NCBI GenBank assembly: GCA_049324295.1
Contig: JBMOKQ010000043.1
Span: 10,746-74,745 of the forward strand
DNA from: Bacteroidota bacterium
Lineage (GTDB): Bacteria > Bacteroidota > Bacteroidia > Chitinophagales > Chitinophagaceae
Length of the DNA: 64,000 nt
Reading direction: 5' to 3'
In this document: one piece after another, positions 4,505 through 44,983 of the stretch
How positions within the stretch are numbered: the stretch's first letter is position 1
Layout of the letters: the number at the start of each line of letters is the position of its first letter
Notes under the pieces: model-generated
What the model was told of the DNA's origin: nothing
Databases searched by the model: none
The model's input: only the letters and a program-made list of their open reading frames with translations
Translations under genes and position numbers: made by a program

Positions 4505-4577
4505 GCATTTTTTTCGATATAGATTTTGCCGGAATGCAATTTTCCCTATTTTTGCCACCCCGAAAGGGAAACGGTAT

Positions 4578-4653
4578 TCCCAAATAGCTCAGATGCTTGC
4601 CCGCCTAAGGAGGGGTTAGAGCATTCCGCCTCAGGCGGATTAATCAACGGGTC
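4578..4653 (+). pseudogene. Degenerate 5' part of tRNA-Asn with hairpin insertions (copy 1)
   Basis: TCCCAAATAGCTCAG..GGTTAGAGCAT..TTAATCA..GGGTC matches the tRNA at 4679; extra sequence in the D-loop and TCCGCCTCAGGCGGA in the anticodon arm. Confidence 0.75.
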
Positions 4654-4678
4654 AAAAACGAAAGAATACCAGACACAT

Positions 4679-4752
4679 TCCCAAATAGCTCAGTTGGTTA
4701 GAGCATCTGACTGTTAATCAGAGGGTCGCTGGTTCAAGTCCAGCTTTGGGAG
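4679..4752 (+). tRNA. tRNA-Asn (GTT)
   Basis: Cloverleaf: acceptor TCCCAAA/TTTGGGA, D stem GCTC/GAGC, anticodon stem TCTGA/TCAGA with loop CTGTTAA, T arm GCTGG-TTCAAGT-CCAGC; CCA not encoded. Confidence 0.97.
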
Positions 4753-4756
4753 CAGA

Positions 4757-4785
4757 GCCCTTCGCAAAAAAGCGGAGGGTTTTTT
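4757..4785 (+). terminator. Intrinsic terminator after tRNA-Asn
   Basis: GCCCTTCGC-A6-GCGGAGGGT followed by a T-tract. Confidence 0.85.
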
Positions 4786-4836
4786 GTTGGTCGAACAACC
4801 AGCACATACAGTAAAAAACGTAAATTCATCATCAGA

Positions 4837-5151
4837 ATGAGCCGGGTGAAACTACATAATAAGCAAGAACTCTTATCTGCTATCTCTACAAACAGAGAAG
4901 TGATAAAAGCCTATGGAGTAAATCGCCTGGGTATTTTTGGCTCATTCTCAAAAGGAACTCCAACAGCATCAAGTGATGTTGATTTGCTGGTAGATTTTAT
5001 ACCAGAGAAAAAAACATTCGACAATTTTATGGACCTGTCTTTCTTTTTGGAAGAACTATTTGGGAGAAAGGTAGAACTGGTAACTCCCCAGTCGTTAAGC
5101 AAATTTATTGGCCCTTACATTTTAAAAGAGGTAGAAAATGTCGGCCTCTAA
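4837..5151 (+). CDS. MNT-family nucleotidyltransferase antitoxin (MntA-like)
   Basis: GIFGSFSKG...SDVDLLVDF motif, LEELFGRKVELVT; overlaps the downstream HEPN gene. Confidence 0.92.
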   Translation: MSRVKLHNKQELLSAISTNREVIKAYGVNRLGIFGSFSKGTPTASSDVDLLVDFIPEKKTFDNFMDLSFFLEELFGRKVELVTPQSLSKFIGPYILKEVENVGL

Positions 5152-5468
5152 TCTAAAACTGGTTCGTCATATATTGATTGAGACGCGTTTTATATTACAA
5201 CACGTTGATGGTAGAAACAAAAGATGAAGTAATTCATGATGAAGTTTTATGTCGTGCAATAGTCAGAAGCATTGAAGTAATTGGAGAGGCCTCCAAAAAG
5301 ATCGATCAGGAATTTAAGTCCGATCATCCTCATATAGAGTGGAAAAAGATGGCTGGTACCCGTGATAAATTAATTCACGATTATTTTGGAATCGATTATG
5401 ATATTGTTTGGGATATCATTGAAAATAAGATACCAGACCTTGATCATTTTCTTAAACAACTGGTGTAG
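5138..5468 (+). pseudogene. HepT/DUF86 HEPN ribonuclease toxin, apparently split by a +1 frameshift
   Basis: ATG 5138 frame MSASNLKLVRHILIETRFILQHVDG stops at about 5226; the RSIEVIGEA...RDKLIHDYFG (RX4H) body is in another frame; joining needs a one-base deletion near 5210-5222. Confidence 0.75.
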
Positions 5469-5493
5469 TTGGCTTTCTTTTCATATCCAATTA

Positions 5494-5590
5494 CAAATAG
5501 CTCAGTTGCCTGTCTGCTGAAGGAAGGGTTAGAGCATTCCGCTTGAGGCGGATAAATCAGCGGGTTGCTGGTCAAGTCCAGCTTTCGGAG
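5494..5590 (+). pseudogene. Near full-length degenerate tRNA-Asn with hairpin insertions (copy 2)
   Basis: CAAATAGCTCAGTT[insert]GGTTAGAGCAT[TCCGCTTGAGGCGGA]TAAATCAGCGGGTTGCTGGTCAAGTCCAGCTTTCGGAG, followed by a decayed copy of the tRNA terminator. Confidence 0.8.
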
Positions 5591-5678
5591 CGAAACCCTT
5601 CACAGGAATGTGAAGTATTCTTTGTCAGTCAAGTGACTACATGTATTCGGAAGAAAATCAACTTAGATAAAAGAGGGG

Positions 5679-5859
5679 GTATCCTTCGTCGCAGATAATA
5701 ACCTGCGGTTATTAATGCTCCTCAGGATGACTAGAACACACACAAGAAACCAGTGGTGATGATTGGCATAGCCAATCATCACCACTAATAATTCCCCGCA
5801 TTAAATGGTCATCCTGAGGAGTATTCTGATCGCAGATCAGAAATTACGACGAAGGATAC
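5679..5859. repeat. Inverted pair of ~52-bp REP-like elements (5679-5731, 5808-5859) around a perfect 16-bp-stem palindrome (5752-5786)
   Basis: GTCATCCTGAGGAG...CGACGAAGGATAC in opposite orientations, each with an internal hairpin; AGTGGTGATGATTGGC-ATA-GCCAATCATCACCACT between them. Confidence 0.85.
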
Positions 5860-5923
5860 GCCTCAGCTTGTAACTACGCCTCGTTCGCAGTACGTTATGA
5901 TAGTTTTGTAATAAACTTATTTT

Positions 5924-6205
5924 ATGTACAAGCACGGCTATGTTTACATACTAACCAATGTCTCCAAAACCATGTTATATGTGGGCGTTACGTCGAACCT
6001 AACGCAGAGAATATGGCAGCATAAACAGAAAATTTACCCCAACTGTTTTACCACTAAATTTAATATTCATCTATTGGTTTACTGCGAAGTGCATACCAGC
6101 ATTGGAGATGCTATTAAAAGAGAAAAAGAAATTAAAGGGTGGAAACGAAGTAAAAAGAATGCGCTGATACAAACAAAGAACCCTAAGTGGGAGACTTTAC
6201 AATAG
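5924..6205 (+). CDS. Stand-alone GIY-YIG nuclease family protein
   Basis: GYVYILTN...LYVGVT, R-x-x-QH, AIKREKEIKGWKRSKK; 93 aa. Confidence 0.93.
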   Translation: MYKHGYVYILTNVSKTMLYVGVTSNLTQRIWQHKQKIYPNCFTTKFNIHLLVYCEVHTSIGDAIKREKEIKGWKRSKKNALIQTKNPKWETLQ

Positions 6206-6255
6206 CTATTCCGCCTTAGGCGGATTAATCAGAGGGTCGCTGGTTCAAGTCCAGC
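6201..6255 (+). pseudogene. 3' half of tRNA-Asn preceded by the 15-nt hairpin (copy 3)
   Basis: TCCGCCTTAGGCGGA (6210-6224), then a 31-nt exact match TTAATCAGAGGGTCGCTGGTTCAAGTCCAGC to the tRNA. Confidence 0.8.
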
Positions 6256-7535: not shown

Positions 7536-7892
7536 TTATGCTAACAGCACTTCCGCAGGAATACTTAATTCCTTATGAAACAACTTTGCAAGCTCCAGCG
7601 TGAGCGGCTTACGCTTGTTAAGCAATGCAGAAACATATCCTTTGCTACCAACTTTTCCAACTAAATCTTTGTTCTTTAAACCCAGATCCTGCATCTTCAG
7701 TTTAATTACCTCTATAGGATCGGGCACAGGCACAGGATAATGAACATCCTCATATTGTTTTATCAGCAAAAGTGCTACCTGAACTTTCTCGCCTTCTGCA
7801 CTGCCAGGCTTAATGCGCTTATCAAATTGATTGTCAACCCAATCAAGGTATTCCTGGTATTGCTTTTTTGTTTTTATTATTTTAAGTTCCAT
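7536..7892 (-). CDS. higA: HigA-type HTH antitoxin
   Basis: IKTKKQY...LLIKQYEDVHYP...PDPIEVIKLKM + XRE HTH (GSKGYVSALLNKRKPLTL). Confidence 0.9.
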   Translation of the reverse strand: MELKIIKTKKQYQEYLDWVDNQFDKRIKPGSAEGEKVQVALLLIKQYEDVHYPVPVPDPIEVIKLKMQDLGLKNKDLVGKVGSKGYVSALLNKRKPLTLELAKLFHKELSIPAEVLLA

Positions 7893-7894
7893 GG

Positions 7895-8206
7895 TTATTT
7901 CTTTTTAAACGGAATCATTTTAACATCAATCTTATCGTATTCAGCATGTGTTCCAAACCATTTTATCTGAATAGCCTTATAATCAAACAGCATTCTTACA
8001 ACCAATCTGTATTTATTACCCATAATATTGAAGACGATTCTGTCATCTCCTATAAGGCTTGCATTACCGTATATTTTTTTTAACTCATTAAAGTTTTTAA
8101 AATCAGCTTTCACCAGTTCATGATACCACTCCTGCAATGCTGTTGCAGCAGCCGGGTATTTGCTGCAGTAATCCAATAAGGTTTTTCTGGTGATGATATT
8201 AAACAC
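7895..8206 (-). CDS. higB: HigB-family type II toxin (mRNA interferase)
   Basis: NIITRKTL..Y..LQEWY...IVFNIMGNKYRLVV...WFGTHAEYDKI. Confidence 0.92.
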   Translation of the reverse strand: MFNIITRKTLLDYCSKYPAAATALQEWYHELVKADFKNFNELKKIYGNASLIGDDRIVFNIMGNKYRLVVRMLFDYKAIQIKWFGTHAEYDKIDVKMIPFKKK

Positions 8207-37356: not shown

Positions 37357-37470
37357 ATCTTATCAAGAAAGGCGGAGGGAATAGGCCCTGTGAAGCCTTG
37401 GCAACCACTTCCGCCTTAGGCCGAAAAAGGTGCCAAATCCGGTCCCGCCTAAAGCGGGAAGAGATAAGTC
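37357..37470 (+). ncRNA. SAM-I (S-box) riboswitch
   Basis: CTTATCAAGA-AAGGCGGAGGGA..GGCCCTGTGAAGCCT-TGGCAACC...AAGGTGCCAAATCC...GAGATAAG consensus upstream of sulfur genes. Confidence 0.93.
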
Positions 37471-43308: not shown

Positions 43309-44983
43309 ACTGAAAATATTAGCTGATTTAATCGGCCAGCTCAATAAAGAAGAATTGATCTGGGTAAATGGATATTTGTCTGGTCTTGTTGCAGAACCCA
43401 TTACGCAAACATCAGTAGCCATTAATGCTGCAGCTGCAAAAAAACTAACCATCGCCTATGGCACAGAAACCGGCAATTCAAAAAAACTGGCCACAGATTT
43501 TGCATCAAAAGCAAAAAAGAAGGGTATTCAAACCAAACTAGTAAGTCTCGATCAGTATAAGCTTACTGAATTACCAAAAGAAGAATATTTTGTTACTGTT
43601 ATCAGTACACAGGGTGATGGAGAGCCGCCTGTAGCCGCACAAAAATTTTATGACCATATTCATAATAACGGTTTTAAGCTGCAGCAACTAAAATATGGTG
43701 TACTTGCATTGGGTGATACAGCTTATCCCATGTTTTGCAAAACAGGAGAAGATGTAGACAAGCAGTTACAGTACCTGGGTGGAGAAAGAATTGCAGGTCT
43801 GCAAAAATGTGATCTTGATTATGAAAATACCGCCCAACAGTGGTTTGATACTGTTTTACAGCAACTGCATACTACCGAAAAAACTACCATAGCAATCAAA
43901 ACTCCTGTGGAAGAAAAAAAACCGGCAGGAAAATTATACTACGATGGGGTTGTACAATCAAATATTAACCTGGCGGCAACAGGGTCTTCAAAAAATATAT
44001 ATCATATTGAACTGGTGGCGGATGGAGTAGGGTTTTTTTCGGGTGATTCAATCGGTATTGTTCCCGGGAATGATGTATTGCTGGTAGATCGGTTATTGCA
44101 ACTGGTATCGATAGATGGAAATAAAACGATTAGCTGGAAAAATGAAACAGCATCGATAAGAGAACTGCTGATTTCAAAAATCAATATCAGTTACCTGTTG
44201 GAAAAATCTGTAAAGTATTATGCCACAATCAGTGGTTATGAAATTCCTGCCTTTAAAACAGATCTTTTATCGTTGGTAAAACAATATCCATTATCCAGAC
44301 CTGAACTATTTGAACAAATTATTGAGGGGCTCACACAGATAGTGCCACGTATTTATAATATTTCTTCTTCCCCTGCTGCACATAATGGAGAAGTACACAT
44401 TACTGTGTTGCGGGATGTATTTAAAAAAGACGAACAGGAACAAACCGGTTTGTGTACACAGTTTTTGGAAAATAAAAAAGAAGGAGATACCGTACGGTTT
44501 TTTATTCAGGGCAATAAAAAATTTCGCTTACCCGCACAGGATAAAGATATCATTATGATAGGTCCGGGTACAGGTATTGCACCATTCCGTTCATTTGTAG
44601 CAGAACGTGATGCAGTAGCAGCAAGTGGAAAAAACTGGTTGTTCTTCAGCGAGGATCAGTTTACCACTGATTTTTTATACCAAACCGAATGGCAAAGCTG
44701 GTTTGAAACAGATGTGCTTACAAGAGTAACCCTTGCATTTCAGAATGGTATTTCAGATGCACCAACACTGGCTGATAAATTGATAGAACAGGGAGCGGAA
44801 TTATTTGCATGGCTCGAAGCGGGGGCATCGCTATACCTCTGCGGAGAAAAAGAACCGGCAGGCAAAGCCATTGAACAAGCTTTAATAAAAGTATTCCAAA
44901 CCCAAACCGGAGATGAAGCAGCCGCTAATGCATACTTCGAAAAACTTAAAAAGGAAAATCGTTACGTAAAAGACCTCTATTAA
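43292..44983 (+). CDS. cysJ: Sulfite reductase flavoprotein subunit (diflavin)
   Basis: YGTETGNS, STQGDGEPP flavodoxin domain, R.YNISSS, MIGPGTGIAPFRSF, DFLYQTEW. Confidence 0.88.
   Translation: MLAEPKLKILADLIGQLNKEELIWVNGYLSGLVAEPITQTSVAINAAAAKKLTIAYGTETGNSKKLATDFASKAKKKGIQTKLVSLDQYKLTELPKEEYFVTVISTQGDGEPPVAAQKFYDHIHNNGFKLQQLKYGVLALGDTAYPMFCKTGEDVDKQLQYLGGERIAGLQKCDLDYENTAQQWFDTVLQQLHTTEKTTIAIKTPVEEKKPAGKLYYDGVVQSNINLAATGSSKNIYHIELVADGVGFFSGDSIGIVPGNDVLLVDRLLQLVSIDGNKTISWKNETASIRELLISKINISYLLEKSVKYYATISGYEIPAFKTDLLSLVKQYPLSRPELFEQIIEGLTQIVPRIYNISSSPAAHNGEVHITVLRDVFKKDEQEQTGLCTQFLENKKEGDTVRFFIQGNKKFRLPAQDKDIIMIGPGTGIAPFRSFVAERDAVAASGKNWLFFSEDQFTTDFLYQTEWQSWFETDVLTRVTLAFQNGISDAPTLADKLIEQGAELFAWLEAGASLYLCGEKEPAGKAIEQALIKVFQTQTGDEAAANAYFEKLKKENRYVKDLY

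Follow-up and report, generated by a model that had tools for sequence, protein, structure and literature searches.

The DNA considered here is a stretch of 64,000 nucleotides, called the window, from a Bacteroidota bacterium of the family Chitinophagaceae (GenBank assembly GCA_049324295.1, contig JBMOKQ010000043.1, positions 10,746 to 74,745 of the forward strand). The assembly, referred to as G000, comprises 3.65 Mb in 102 contigs with 37 tRNA genes; C43 is the contig of the window and the other G numbers denote comparison genomes. In a short segment of the window an intact tRNA-Asn gene is accompanied by three partial copies of itself (psiA, psiB and psiC), in each of which a piece of the anticodon arm is replaced by the same GC-rich palindrome, and these copies bracket a MntA/HepT toxin-antitoxin pair and a small stand-alone GIY-YIG nuclease gene. 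Our preferred interpretation, to which we assign a probability of roughly 55%, is that selfish single-gene cassettes have settled at the tRNA-Asn gene by way of nuclease-stimulated recombination and segmental duplication through tRNA homology. The features of the locus are the following:

4547–4554, plus strand: promoter -7 box TATTTTTG, 23 nucleotides upstream of psiA, read from the sequence.
4578–4653, plus strand: psiA, 5' part of tRNA-Asn, from an alignment of the four units, the raw sequence and a 15-mer scan.
4679–4753, plus strand: intact tRNA-Asn(GTT), found by ARAGORN and Rfam (tRNA, 74.4 bits), 100% identical to the tRNA-Asn of G017.
4754–4790, plus strand: intrinsic terminator of tRNA-Asn, a 12-bp stem and a T run.
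4837–5151, plus strand: MntA-like nucleotidyltransferase, a type VII antitoxin (Pfam NTP_transf_2, 1.3e-11).
5138–5468, plus strand: HepT-like HEPN RNase gene, apparently frameshifted (Pfam HepT-like, 1.5e-27, over 5178–5468; translation).
5491–5592, plus strand: psiB, near full-length pseudo-tRNA-Asn, from the alignment, the 15-mer scan and the raw sequence.
5598–5625, plus strand: decayed copy of the tRNA terminator, from the unit alignment and terminator analysis.
5676–5862, no strand assigned: three nested inverted repeats upstream of the GIY-YIG gene, resembling repetitive extragenic palindromes (REPs), from inverted-repeat analysis.
5924–6205, plus strand: stand-alone GIY-YIG nuclease of 93 amino acids, catalytic domain only (Pfam GIY-YIG PF01541, 1.6e-15).
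6201–6255, plus strand: psiC, 3' half of tRNA-Asn, from the raw sequence, the unit alignment, the 15-mer scan and BLAST.

The palindrome common to the three pseudo-copies, TCCGC(C/T)TNAGGCGGA, is 15 bases long and replaces bases 28–34 of the anticodon arm. psiA consists of tRNA bases 1–15, a GC-rich D-loop insert of about 20 nucleotides (approximately 4594–4614), GTTAGAGCAT, the palindrome in the form TCCGCCTCAGGCGGA (4625–4639, in place of CTGACTG) and TTAATCAACGGGTC, and it ends at about base 48. psiB has a D-loop insert homologous to that of psiA, the palindrome TCCGCTTGAGGCGGA at 5538–5552 and a mismatched, decayed acceptor stem. In psiC, AATAGCT and AT are followed by the palindrome TCCGCCTTAGGCGGA (6210–6224) and by 31 nucleotides identical to tRNA positions 36–66, so that the palindrome precedes this 3' repeat; bases 67–76, the acceptor 3' strand, are missing, and the TAG within AATAGCT serves as the stop codon of the GIY-YIG gene. 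With at most one mismatch the 15-mer occurs at five sites in the window, corresponding to ten matches over both strands, while 0.04 are expected from shuffled sequences. The shared junctions of the three copies and the D-loop insert common to psiA and psiB indicate one ancestral hairpin-bearing copy instead of three separate hits. An initial annotation of this DNA had described one intact tRNA-Asn, three derived copies with a single hairpin and a second GC-rich insert in the D loop of two of them, and ARAGORN, Rfam and our alignment agree with it. The junction it gave, AGAGCAT, hairpin, T(T/A)AATCA, is correct for psiA and psiB; in psiC the left flank reads AGCTAT because the D arm is deleted. 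We considered the pseudo-copies as functional tRNAs or tRNA-like RNAs and rejected this, since they fold no better than shuffled sequences (z of -1.3 to -2.2) and are blank in ARAGORN and Rfam; between 3500 and 8500 Rfam detected only the intact tRNA, and no family besides tRNA covers the pseudo-copies.

The genes between the copies likewise bear the names first given to them, as Pfam supports the NTP_transf_2, HepT and GIY-YIG calls and the bracketing of single-gene cargo by pseudo-copies. The MntA/HepT pair shows the adjacent nucleotidyltransferase and HEPN genes and the RDKLIH motif (Rx4-6H) of type VII toxin-antitoxin systems, with an NCBIfam MntA score of 38 bits for 4837–5151, under the 60-bit cut-off, and a HepT score that is also under its cut-off. 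The first 29 codons of HepT (5138–5227) are off-frame from the remainder (5178/5208–5468); this N-terminal piece, MSASNLKLVRHILIETRFILQHVDGRNKR followed by a stop, overlaps the end of mntA and has the same sequence in two other assemblies. Either the toxin is broken or AAACAAAAGATGA is a site of frameshifting.

The 1.5-kb Asn arrangement is 100% identical in two independent metagenome contigs (Logan ERR13763433 and JGI 3300013020) and is therefore real and not an assembly artefact. Look-ups of the exact proteins matched only identical contigs, and no population polymorphism was seen in them. The ancestral state of the site can be read from G017, a complete genome of the same genus and the closest complete relative, in which the aligned flanks of the Asn locus are about 70–80% identical, a divergence that limits the comparison to the promoter–tRNA junction. 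There, the promoter box is followed after 22 nucleotides by an intact, 100% identical tRNA-Asn, there are no pseudo-copies, and other genes lie downstream. The -7 box, which we take to be of the Bacteroidota type TAnnTTTG, occurs with equal spacing upstream of this tRNA-Asn and of other tRNAs of G000. Since the promoter of G017 directly abuts the intact tRNA, psiA occupies the former position of the tRNA gene, and the functional copy now lies 101 nucleotides further on. The search for the modified unit across genomes that the initial annotation had proposed came back empty, as the exact Asn-plus-hairpin unit (up to three mismatches) is absent from 400 other genomes of the family and is found in G000 only.

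The GIY-YIG gene of this locus has several counterparts in the genome. Pfam GIY-YIG yields 12 matches in G000, of which ten are small stand-alone open reading frames (ORFs); the other two are larger frames of about 600 and 440 amino acids with same-sized counterparts in the searched relatives, and the former is taken to be UvrC. Nine of the ten small genes abut a tRNA or pseudo-tRNA, namely fMet, Met (two), Asp (two), Ser(TGA), Leu(GAG), Ser(GCT) and the Asn locus. As tRNA genes with 300-nucleotide flanks are estimated to make up about 0.6% of the genome, this adjacency is far from chance. The encoded proteins are 83–104 amino acids long and consist of an intact catalytic domain only, as in free-standing GIY-YIG homing endonuclease genes, with no DNA-binding domain for a long specific target. 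By the same Pfam search, one small GIY-YIG gene each is present in G017, G019 (where it is broken) and G022, and none in G018. The gene of G017 lies about 40 nucleotides downstream of tRNA-Val and is followed by a pseudo-Val that carries TCCCGCCTTCGGCGGGA. The interval between tRNA-fMet and era provides a case of presence and absence at an orthologous site, as it holds a cassette in G000 and G022 but none in G017 or G013, which bears out the variable content among relatives that had been predicted.

Two layouts recur. In type I, the tRNA and its terminator are followed by the GIY-YIG ORF, the 3' part of a pseudo-tRNA with the palindrome, and a terminator copy; the ATG of the ORF comes immediately after the T run of the terminator. 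In type II, the promoter is followed by the 5' part of a pseudo-tRNA with the palindrome, the GIY-YIG ORF and the intact tRNA. Type I pseudo-copies lack bases 1–16 and type II pseudo-copies bases 39–76, and the breakpoints cluster in the anticodon loop at positions 31–39. At the Asn locus, psiA is a type II remnant, and psiB and psiC are type I units. The existence of both layouts would be expected if the pseudo-tRNAs were attC- or attP-like sites and the cassettes were excised as circles that re-enter tRNA genes by a single crossover beside the hairpin, because crossover in the 3' or in the 5' homology arm would yield type I or type II; the single cargo gene per slot and the structural selection on the hairpin (see below) point in the same direction. 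However, most pseudo-copies are partial in the way just described, the contig carries no tyrosine recombinase, the Asn unit is unique to G000 and the position of the hairpin varies, so that we regard such circles as very improbable. The view that the hairpin-modified tRNA acts as an integron-like, site-specific recombination unit is not supported by the search either, which revealed neither a tyrosine recombinase on the contig nor attC; recombination through tRNA homology together with segmental duplication fits the data better than an integron-like array.

How general the linkage is can be judged from a wider survey. An alignment of four Met-linked GIY-YIG proteins recovered at least 500 relatives in the GTDB species collection, and we inspected the loci of the best 79 of these, the nearest of which belong to Sediminibacterium. 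They span Chitinophagaceae, Marinifilaceae, Cyclobacteriaceae, Saprospiraceae, Sphingobacteriaceae, Flavobacteriales, Bacteroidales, Balneolaceae and Ignavibacteria, and hence the phyla Bacteroidota, Balneolota and Ignavibacteriota. The flank was long enough for a tRNA check in 70 of the 79 loci: tRNA-Met(CAT) lies at most 250 nucleotides upstream on the same strand in 62 of them, with a median gap of 55 nucleotides, and just downstream in two. A TCCGCC-type hairpin is present in 74 of the 79 loci, in 67 of them within 120 nucleotides after the ORF, and ten loci contain tandem full-length units. These figures and the nine of ten small genes in G000 confirm the enrichment of GIY-YIG genes next to hairpin-bearing pseudo-tRNAs that the initial annotation had anticipated. 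The usual junction reads GGGCTCATA, then TCCGCC-N(2-6)-GGCGGA, then C, the T arm, the 3' strand of the acceptor and the terminator copy; in some copies the hairpin replaces the D arm or the T loop instead. Up to the hairpin, the pseudo-copy of each lineage agrees with the local tRNA in its T arm and terminator, which argues for local duplication or for continuing gene conversion that stops at the hairpin. The subfamily matches the UPF0213 and SLX1 structures 1zg2, 1ywl and 7wme. Outside the Met-linked loci, G030, from another family, has a tRNA-Asn followed by two GIY-YIG units, with the pseudo-Asn broken at the same junction (AGAG, hairpin, TTAATCAGAGGG); its palindromes are different, of the form TCCCG...CGGGA, and further incomplete pseudo-Asn units lie upstream.

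The constancy of the hairpin and its position next to the ORF raise the question of whether it works as RNA. In such a system the pseudo-tRNA or hairpin RNA would be the cis partner of the GIY-YIG protein, as a type III-like antitoxin, a regulator or a stabiliser of the mRNA 3' end. The order of an RNA repeat, a terminator and a small nuclease gene resembles that of type III toxin-antitoxin loci, but only the gene order does so: the protein is a GIY-YIG domain and not ToxN, CptN or TenpN, and we rejected membership in this class. In three phyla the hairpin keeps its sequence alongside one protein subfamily, and the ORF is predicted to be co-transcribed with the tRNA and the pseudo-tRNA, both of which would suit a function in RNA. 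However, DNA is the known substrate of the GIY-YIG enzymes characterised so far. The hairpin follows the ORF in type I but precedes it in type II, the folding of whole pseudo-copies is no better than that of shuffled sequence, and stem variants that lack compensation are not biased by strand towards G-U pairs, although these are too few to separate selection on RNA from selection on DNA. A further point in favour is the reported fusion of a prokaryotic Slx1-like domain to the tRNA methylase TrmH (PMC1564403). On balance an RNA-level system appears very unlikely to us.

Pseudo-tRNAs are not confined to loci with a nuclease gene. Partial copies with arms replaced by GC palindromes adjoin about 14–17 of the 37 tRNA genes of G000 and also the 5S gene. 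BLAST of each tRNA against the genome found partial copies beside at least 14, to which locus reading adds Asp, Arg(TCT) and Lys; in all, they adjoin Ala, Thr (two), Pro, Met (two), Arg (two), Asp, Ser (two), Lys, Leu, Val and 5S. At least seven tandem 74-nucleotide pseudo-Ala units, all incomplete tRNAs, precede tRNA-Ala(GGC) (contig C38, 16990–17665, with a gap of Ns inside the array) and have TCCCGATGGTAATCGGGA as anticodon arm; pseudo-Thr and pseudo-Pro arrays are also present. The 5S gene (contig C82, 44016–44126) is followed by a 3' fragment and a second terminator (44195–44290), and in this fragment the native helix tip GCGTTTTGC is swapped for TCCGCCTGAGGCGGA. The substitutes are nearly always GC-rich palindromes that begin with TCC and end with GGA. 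They fall into the classes TCCGCC-N3-GGCGGA (Asn, fMet, Arg(TCT) and the leader of Arg(CCG)), TCCCG(A)-loop-(T)CGGGA (Ala, Thr, Pro, Met and Lys, often replacing exactly positions 27–43) and TCCCCAC-N6-GTGGGGA (Asp and Arg(CCG)), and further palindromes occur in D loops (Leu and Ser). G017, in contrast, has pseudo-copies at only two distinct loci among 39 tRNAs, so that in this pair of genomes more small GIY-YIG genes go with more pseudo-tRNA loci. Both of its ribosomal RNA operons contain a pseudo-tRNA-Ala with the anticodon arm TCCCGATTTGTATCGGGA between tRNA-Ile and tRNA-Ala.

One cassette of G000 has a clean border. On contig C49 (10134–11620), a 366-amino-acid protein labelled Fic-type from its motif HPFADGNGR lies between tRNA-Phe with its terminator and a tRNA 3' copy. 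The far border consists of an exact 45-nucleotide 3' copy and a second terminator, with no palindrome and no integrase.

Such 3' repeats are known from islands that integrase enzymes insert at tRNA genes, and the Asn locus could be what remains of them: attachment-site duplicates at tRNA-Asn, elements decayed to single genes, and a REP-like palindrome that landed later. Synteny between G000 and G017 ends exactly at the 3' end of tRNA-Asn, beyond which lies a variable region rich in toxin-antitoxin and defence genes (among them, at 7536–8206, a HigB gene identified by Pfam and an adjacent small ORF with no Pfam match). Moreover, the 31 nucleotides of psiC form an exact 3' repeat, and the hairpin-free tRNA-Phe/Fic cassette has its 45-nucleotide equivalent. 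On the other hand, psiC breaks off at base 66 before reaching the 3' end of the tRNA, psiA is located upstream of the intact gene, and both psiA and psiB hold 5' halves, which do not arise from duplication of an attachment site. In dozens of lineages this layout recurs with an ORF of about 85 amino acids as sole cargo. A search with PF00589 gave no tyrosine recombinase on the whole of contig C43, as the initial annotation had noted for the window, and five matches on other contigs; serine recombinases were not searched. We therefore consider decayed islands rather improbable.

The palindrome itself is under constraint. Among 117 distinct copies, 107 have the stem TCCGCC/GGCGGA, and seven have compensatory double changes (TCCGTC/GACGGA, TTCGCC/GGCGAA), whereas the loop takes 34 different forms. 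The conserved stem and the compensatory changes indicate a hairpin under both structural and sequence constraint with a loop that is free to vary, and the loops are largely genome-specific. The 15-mer with the loop TNA was counted ten times in G000, twice in G022, once in G037 and not at all in 38 other relatives, and a reversed-pattern control gave no match. In a GIY-YIG survey, G000 and G022 were the only members of the genus with a match, and seven GIY-YIG-positive genomes from other families had no TNA-loop copy. When loops of 2–6 nucleotides were allowed, G031 had 20 copies, G040 11, G027 one, G030 none and G017 three, all in one 105-nucleotide tandem repeat. An origin of the palindrome as a snap-back or P-nucleotide repair scar was rejected, as the sequence is not derived from its flanks and is conserved across phyla. 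So was a link to REP-associated tyrosine transposases (RAYTs): the two Y1_Tnp genes of G000 (contigs C47 and C55) are flanked by different REPs of the GTAG type.

The initial annotation had placed the hairpin always at the anticodon junction. This is too narrow, given that it also occupies D arms, T loops, the variable region, a 5S helix and the stems of a riboswitch and of RNase P RNA. Besides pseudo-tRNAs, the palindrome occurs in REP-like arrays beside another GIY-YIG subfamily and just after Flavo-1-like repeats; in G031, a TCCGCC...GGCGGA hairpin comes immediately after each of several copies of Rfam's Flavo-1 RNA motif. The palindrome forms helix tips in RNase P RNA (G031 and G040, which represent two families), in a cobalamin riboswitch (G040) and in helix 45 of 23S ribosomal RNA (G040), the latter being the classical site of intervening sequences. 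In the window, the P3 stem of a SAM-I riboswitch (37410–37424) reads TCCGCCTTAGGCCGA and has 14 of the 15 bases of the palindrome; five relatives in the genus share another P3 (CATAC...GTATG). Upstream of hflX, a GC-rich element of about 150 nucleotides (2036–2182) carries the palindrome at its tip (2104–2118), folds at -63 kcal/mol (z of -4.1) and has four copies in the genome that are 89–92% identical (contigs C43, C49 and two on C81); it had no match in Rfam. The palindrome thus behaves as a dispersed module able to occupy helix tips where this is tolerated, and its association with the nuclease is closest in the Met-linked subfamily.

This dispersal allows two further explanations. By analogy with REP and RAYT pairs, Slx1-like GIY-YIG proteins and their cognate palindromes might form a two-component system that propagates a hairpin of 15–16 nucleotides over the stem-loops of RNA genes. 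Its targets would be tRNA duplicates, 5S, riboswitch P3, RNase P RNA and 23S helix 45, and the tRNA-linked cassettes would be its home sites. We consider this unlikely, though worth keeping in mind, because such a system, if real, would be a miniature mobile element of a new kind, with hairpins in DNA or RNA as its targets and a reshaping effect on RNA genes. Alternatively, two neutral processes could coincide: tRNA duplicates decay while a dispersed palindrome lands in stem-loops, and GIY-YIG genes exploit tRNA promoters. The occurrence of the palindrome in RNase P RNA, cobalamin and SAM riboswitches, 23S helix 45 and REP-like and Flavo-1-like repeats, the genome-specific loops, which suggest copying within a genome, and the pseudo-tRNA arrays that have no GIY-YIG gene would all agree with such a coincidence. 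It leaves unexplained, however, why the hairpin closely follows the ORF of a single GIY-YIG subfamily in 67 of 79 loci from three phyla, why the TNA-loop 15-mer is limited to three of 41 genomes (G000, G022 and G037), and why, of G000 and G017, the genome richer in small GIY-YIG genes is also richer in pseudo-tRNA loci, and we hold it to be highly doubtful.

We thus return to colonisation of the tRNA gene by single-gene cassettes. At tRNA-Asn these cassettes would be the GIY-YIG gene and the MntA/HepT pair, and elsewhere the Fic gene, each insertion having left a partial tRNA duplicate and usually a copy of the terminator. The GIY-YIG ORF appears to have no promoter of its own and may ride on that of the tRNA. 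Its Slx1/UPF0213-like product would break DNA in or beside the heavily transcribed, hairpin-prone tRNA gene, and repair through short tRNA homology could then copy the cassette or amplify the segment in tandem, as demonstrated for SegB of phages. The GC palindrome would be a conserved element acting in cis, put in place of one arm of the redundant copy, and that its stem is conserved phylum-wide together with one protein subfamily suggests that this protein may recognise it directly. Three roles can be envisaged for it, and they are not mutually exclusive. By removing the anticodon arm it may disable the redundant copy as a tRNA or as a nuclease target; as the most tRNA-specific part of the molecule, this arm is a likely recognition element for the nuclease or the synthetase. 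It may also break the direct repeat and so prevent deletion of the cassette. Finally, gene conversion with the neighbouring tRNA may fail to correct it, since it is a palindromic heterology.

Several observations weigh against this interpretation. A bare catalytic domain that lacks a DNA-recognition domain makes sequence-specific homing doubtful, and because the filled allele keeps every sequence window of the empty allele, classical homing immunity cannot work. The GIY-YIG tree, which is poorly resolved and based on too few columns to tell transfer from vertical descent, groups largely by host family, a pattern more suggestive of long vertical residence with patchy loss than of rapid horizontal spread. 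The GIY-YIG gene of the window itself belongs to a subfamily that elsewhere occurs in REP-like arrays and usually not at tRNAs, with homologues in other genomes also flanked by similar GC-rich repeats, so that the connection between GIY-YIG genes and tRNAs made by the initial annotation is valid in general and less so for the very gene it was drawn from. The MntA/HepT and Fic cargo at tRNAs are single examples each, and the arrays of Ala (seven units), Thr, Pro and 5S have no neighbouring nuclease gene. Since the palindrome is also found in REP-like arrays, Flavo-1-like repeats and functional RNAs, its tie to the nuclease may be indirect.

Slx1/UPF0213-type GIY-YIG proteins are widespread in prokaryotes, and the stand-alone forms have been described as minimal proteins whose role is unknown (PMC1564403); in the literature searched we found no established function for them. 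Nor did we find there a description of tRNA-linked stand-alone GIY-YIG genes in bacterial chromosomes, of palindrome-substituted pseudo-tRNAs or of the TCCGCC...GGCGGA palindrome. The position between a tRNA and a palindrome-disabled copy of it gives these proteins a testable genomic role: as selfish cassettes, they could exploit tRNA genes both for landing and for their promoters, with no need of an integrase. If this is true, nuclease-driven amplification at tRNA genes would reach from phages to bacterial chromosomes, and a class of pseudo-tRNA arrays that gene finders ignore would be explained. A palindrome that can replace helices is also relevant to the origin of variable stems in structured RNAs and to the protection of direct repeats against recombination.

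The arrangement shares features with several known systems. Like integrons, it has serial single-gene cassettes separated by a recurrent hairpin-forming unit; we rejected this assignment, as there is no IntI, attI or attC consensus, the repeated unit is derived from the local tRNA and no sign of site-specific recombination emerged. With integrase islands it has in common the cargo at a tRNA gene, a border formed by a direct repeat of part of the tRNA, the intact tRNA and a variable downstream region, but here each slot holds one gene, the duplicates are both 5' and 3' and are modified by the palindrome, and terminators are duplicated as well. Short GC-rich palindromes with 10–20 copies per genome, genome-specific variants and a position beside a small single-domain nuclease gene are reminiscent of REP and RAYT systems. 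The nuclease, however, is of the GIY-YIG and not of the HUH/Y1 type, the GTAG/CGTC tag is missing, the copy number is low and stems inside RNA genes are replaced. Intervening sequences are found in helices 25 and 45 of 23S ribosomal RNA, and Rickettsia palindromic elements occur inside genes. As in intervening sequences, a stem-loop here replaces or extends a helix tip and leaves function intact, and in G040 the palindrome forms 23S helix 45; the element described here differs in that it measures only 15–16 nucleotides, lies mainly in non-functional copies and is tied to tRNA-linked nuclease cassettes.

The closest parallel to our proposed mechanism is SegB, a free-standing GIY-YIG endonuclease in the tRNA cluster of phages T4 and T6 that cuts inside tRNA genes (PMC13096335; PMC2330249). 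SegB drives the recombination-dependent tandem amplification of a unit composed of a tRNA gene and a truncated segB, with a junction where the 3' end of segB and the tRNA 5' end share microhomology, and its homologues are associated with tRNAs of many isotypes (PMC13096335). At our loci, too, the nuclease gene adjoins a tRNA, the units are in tandem and the end of the ORF is fused to the tRNA motif TAGCTC. In contrast to SegB, the genes described here reside in the chromosomes of Bacteroidota and neighbouring phyla and encode bare Slx1/UPF0213-like domains with putative cleavage activity, the redundant tRNA copy carries a conserved palindrome, and the association looks old and largely vertical.

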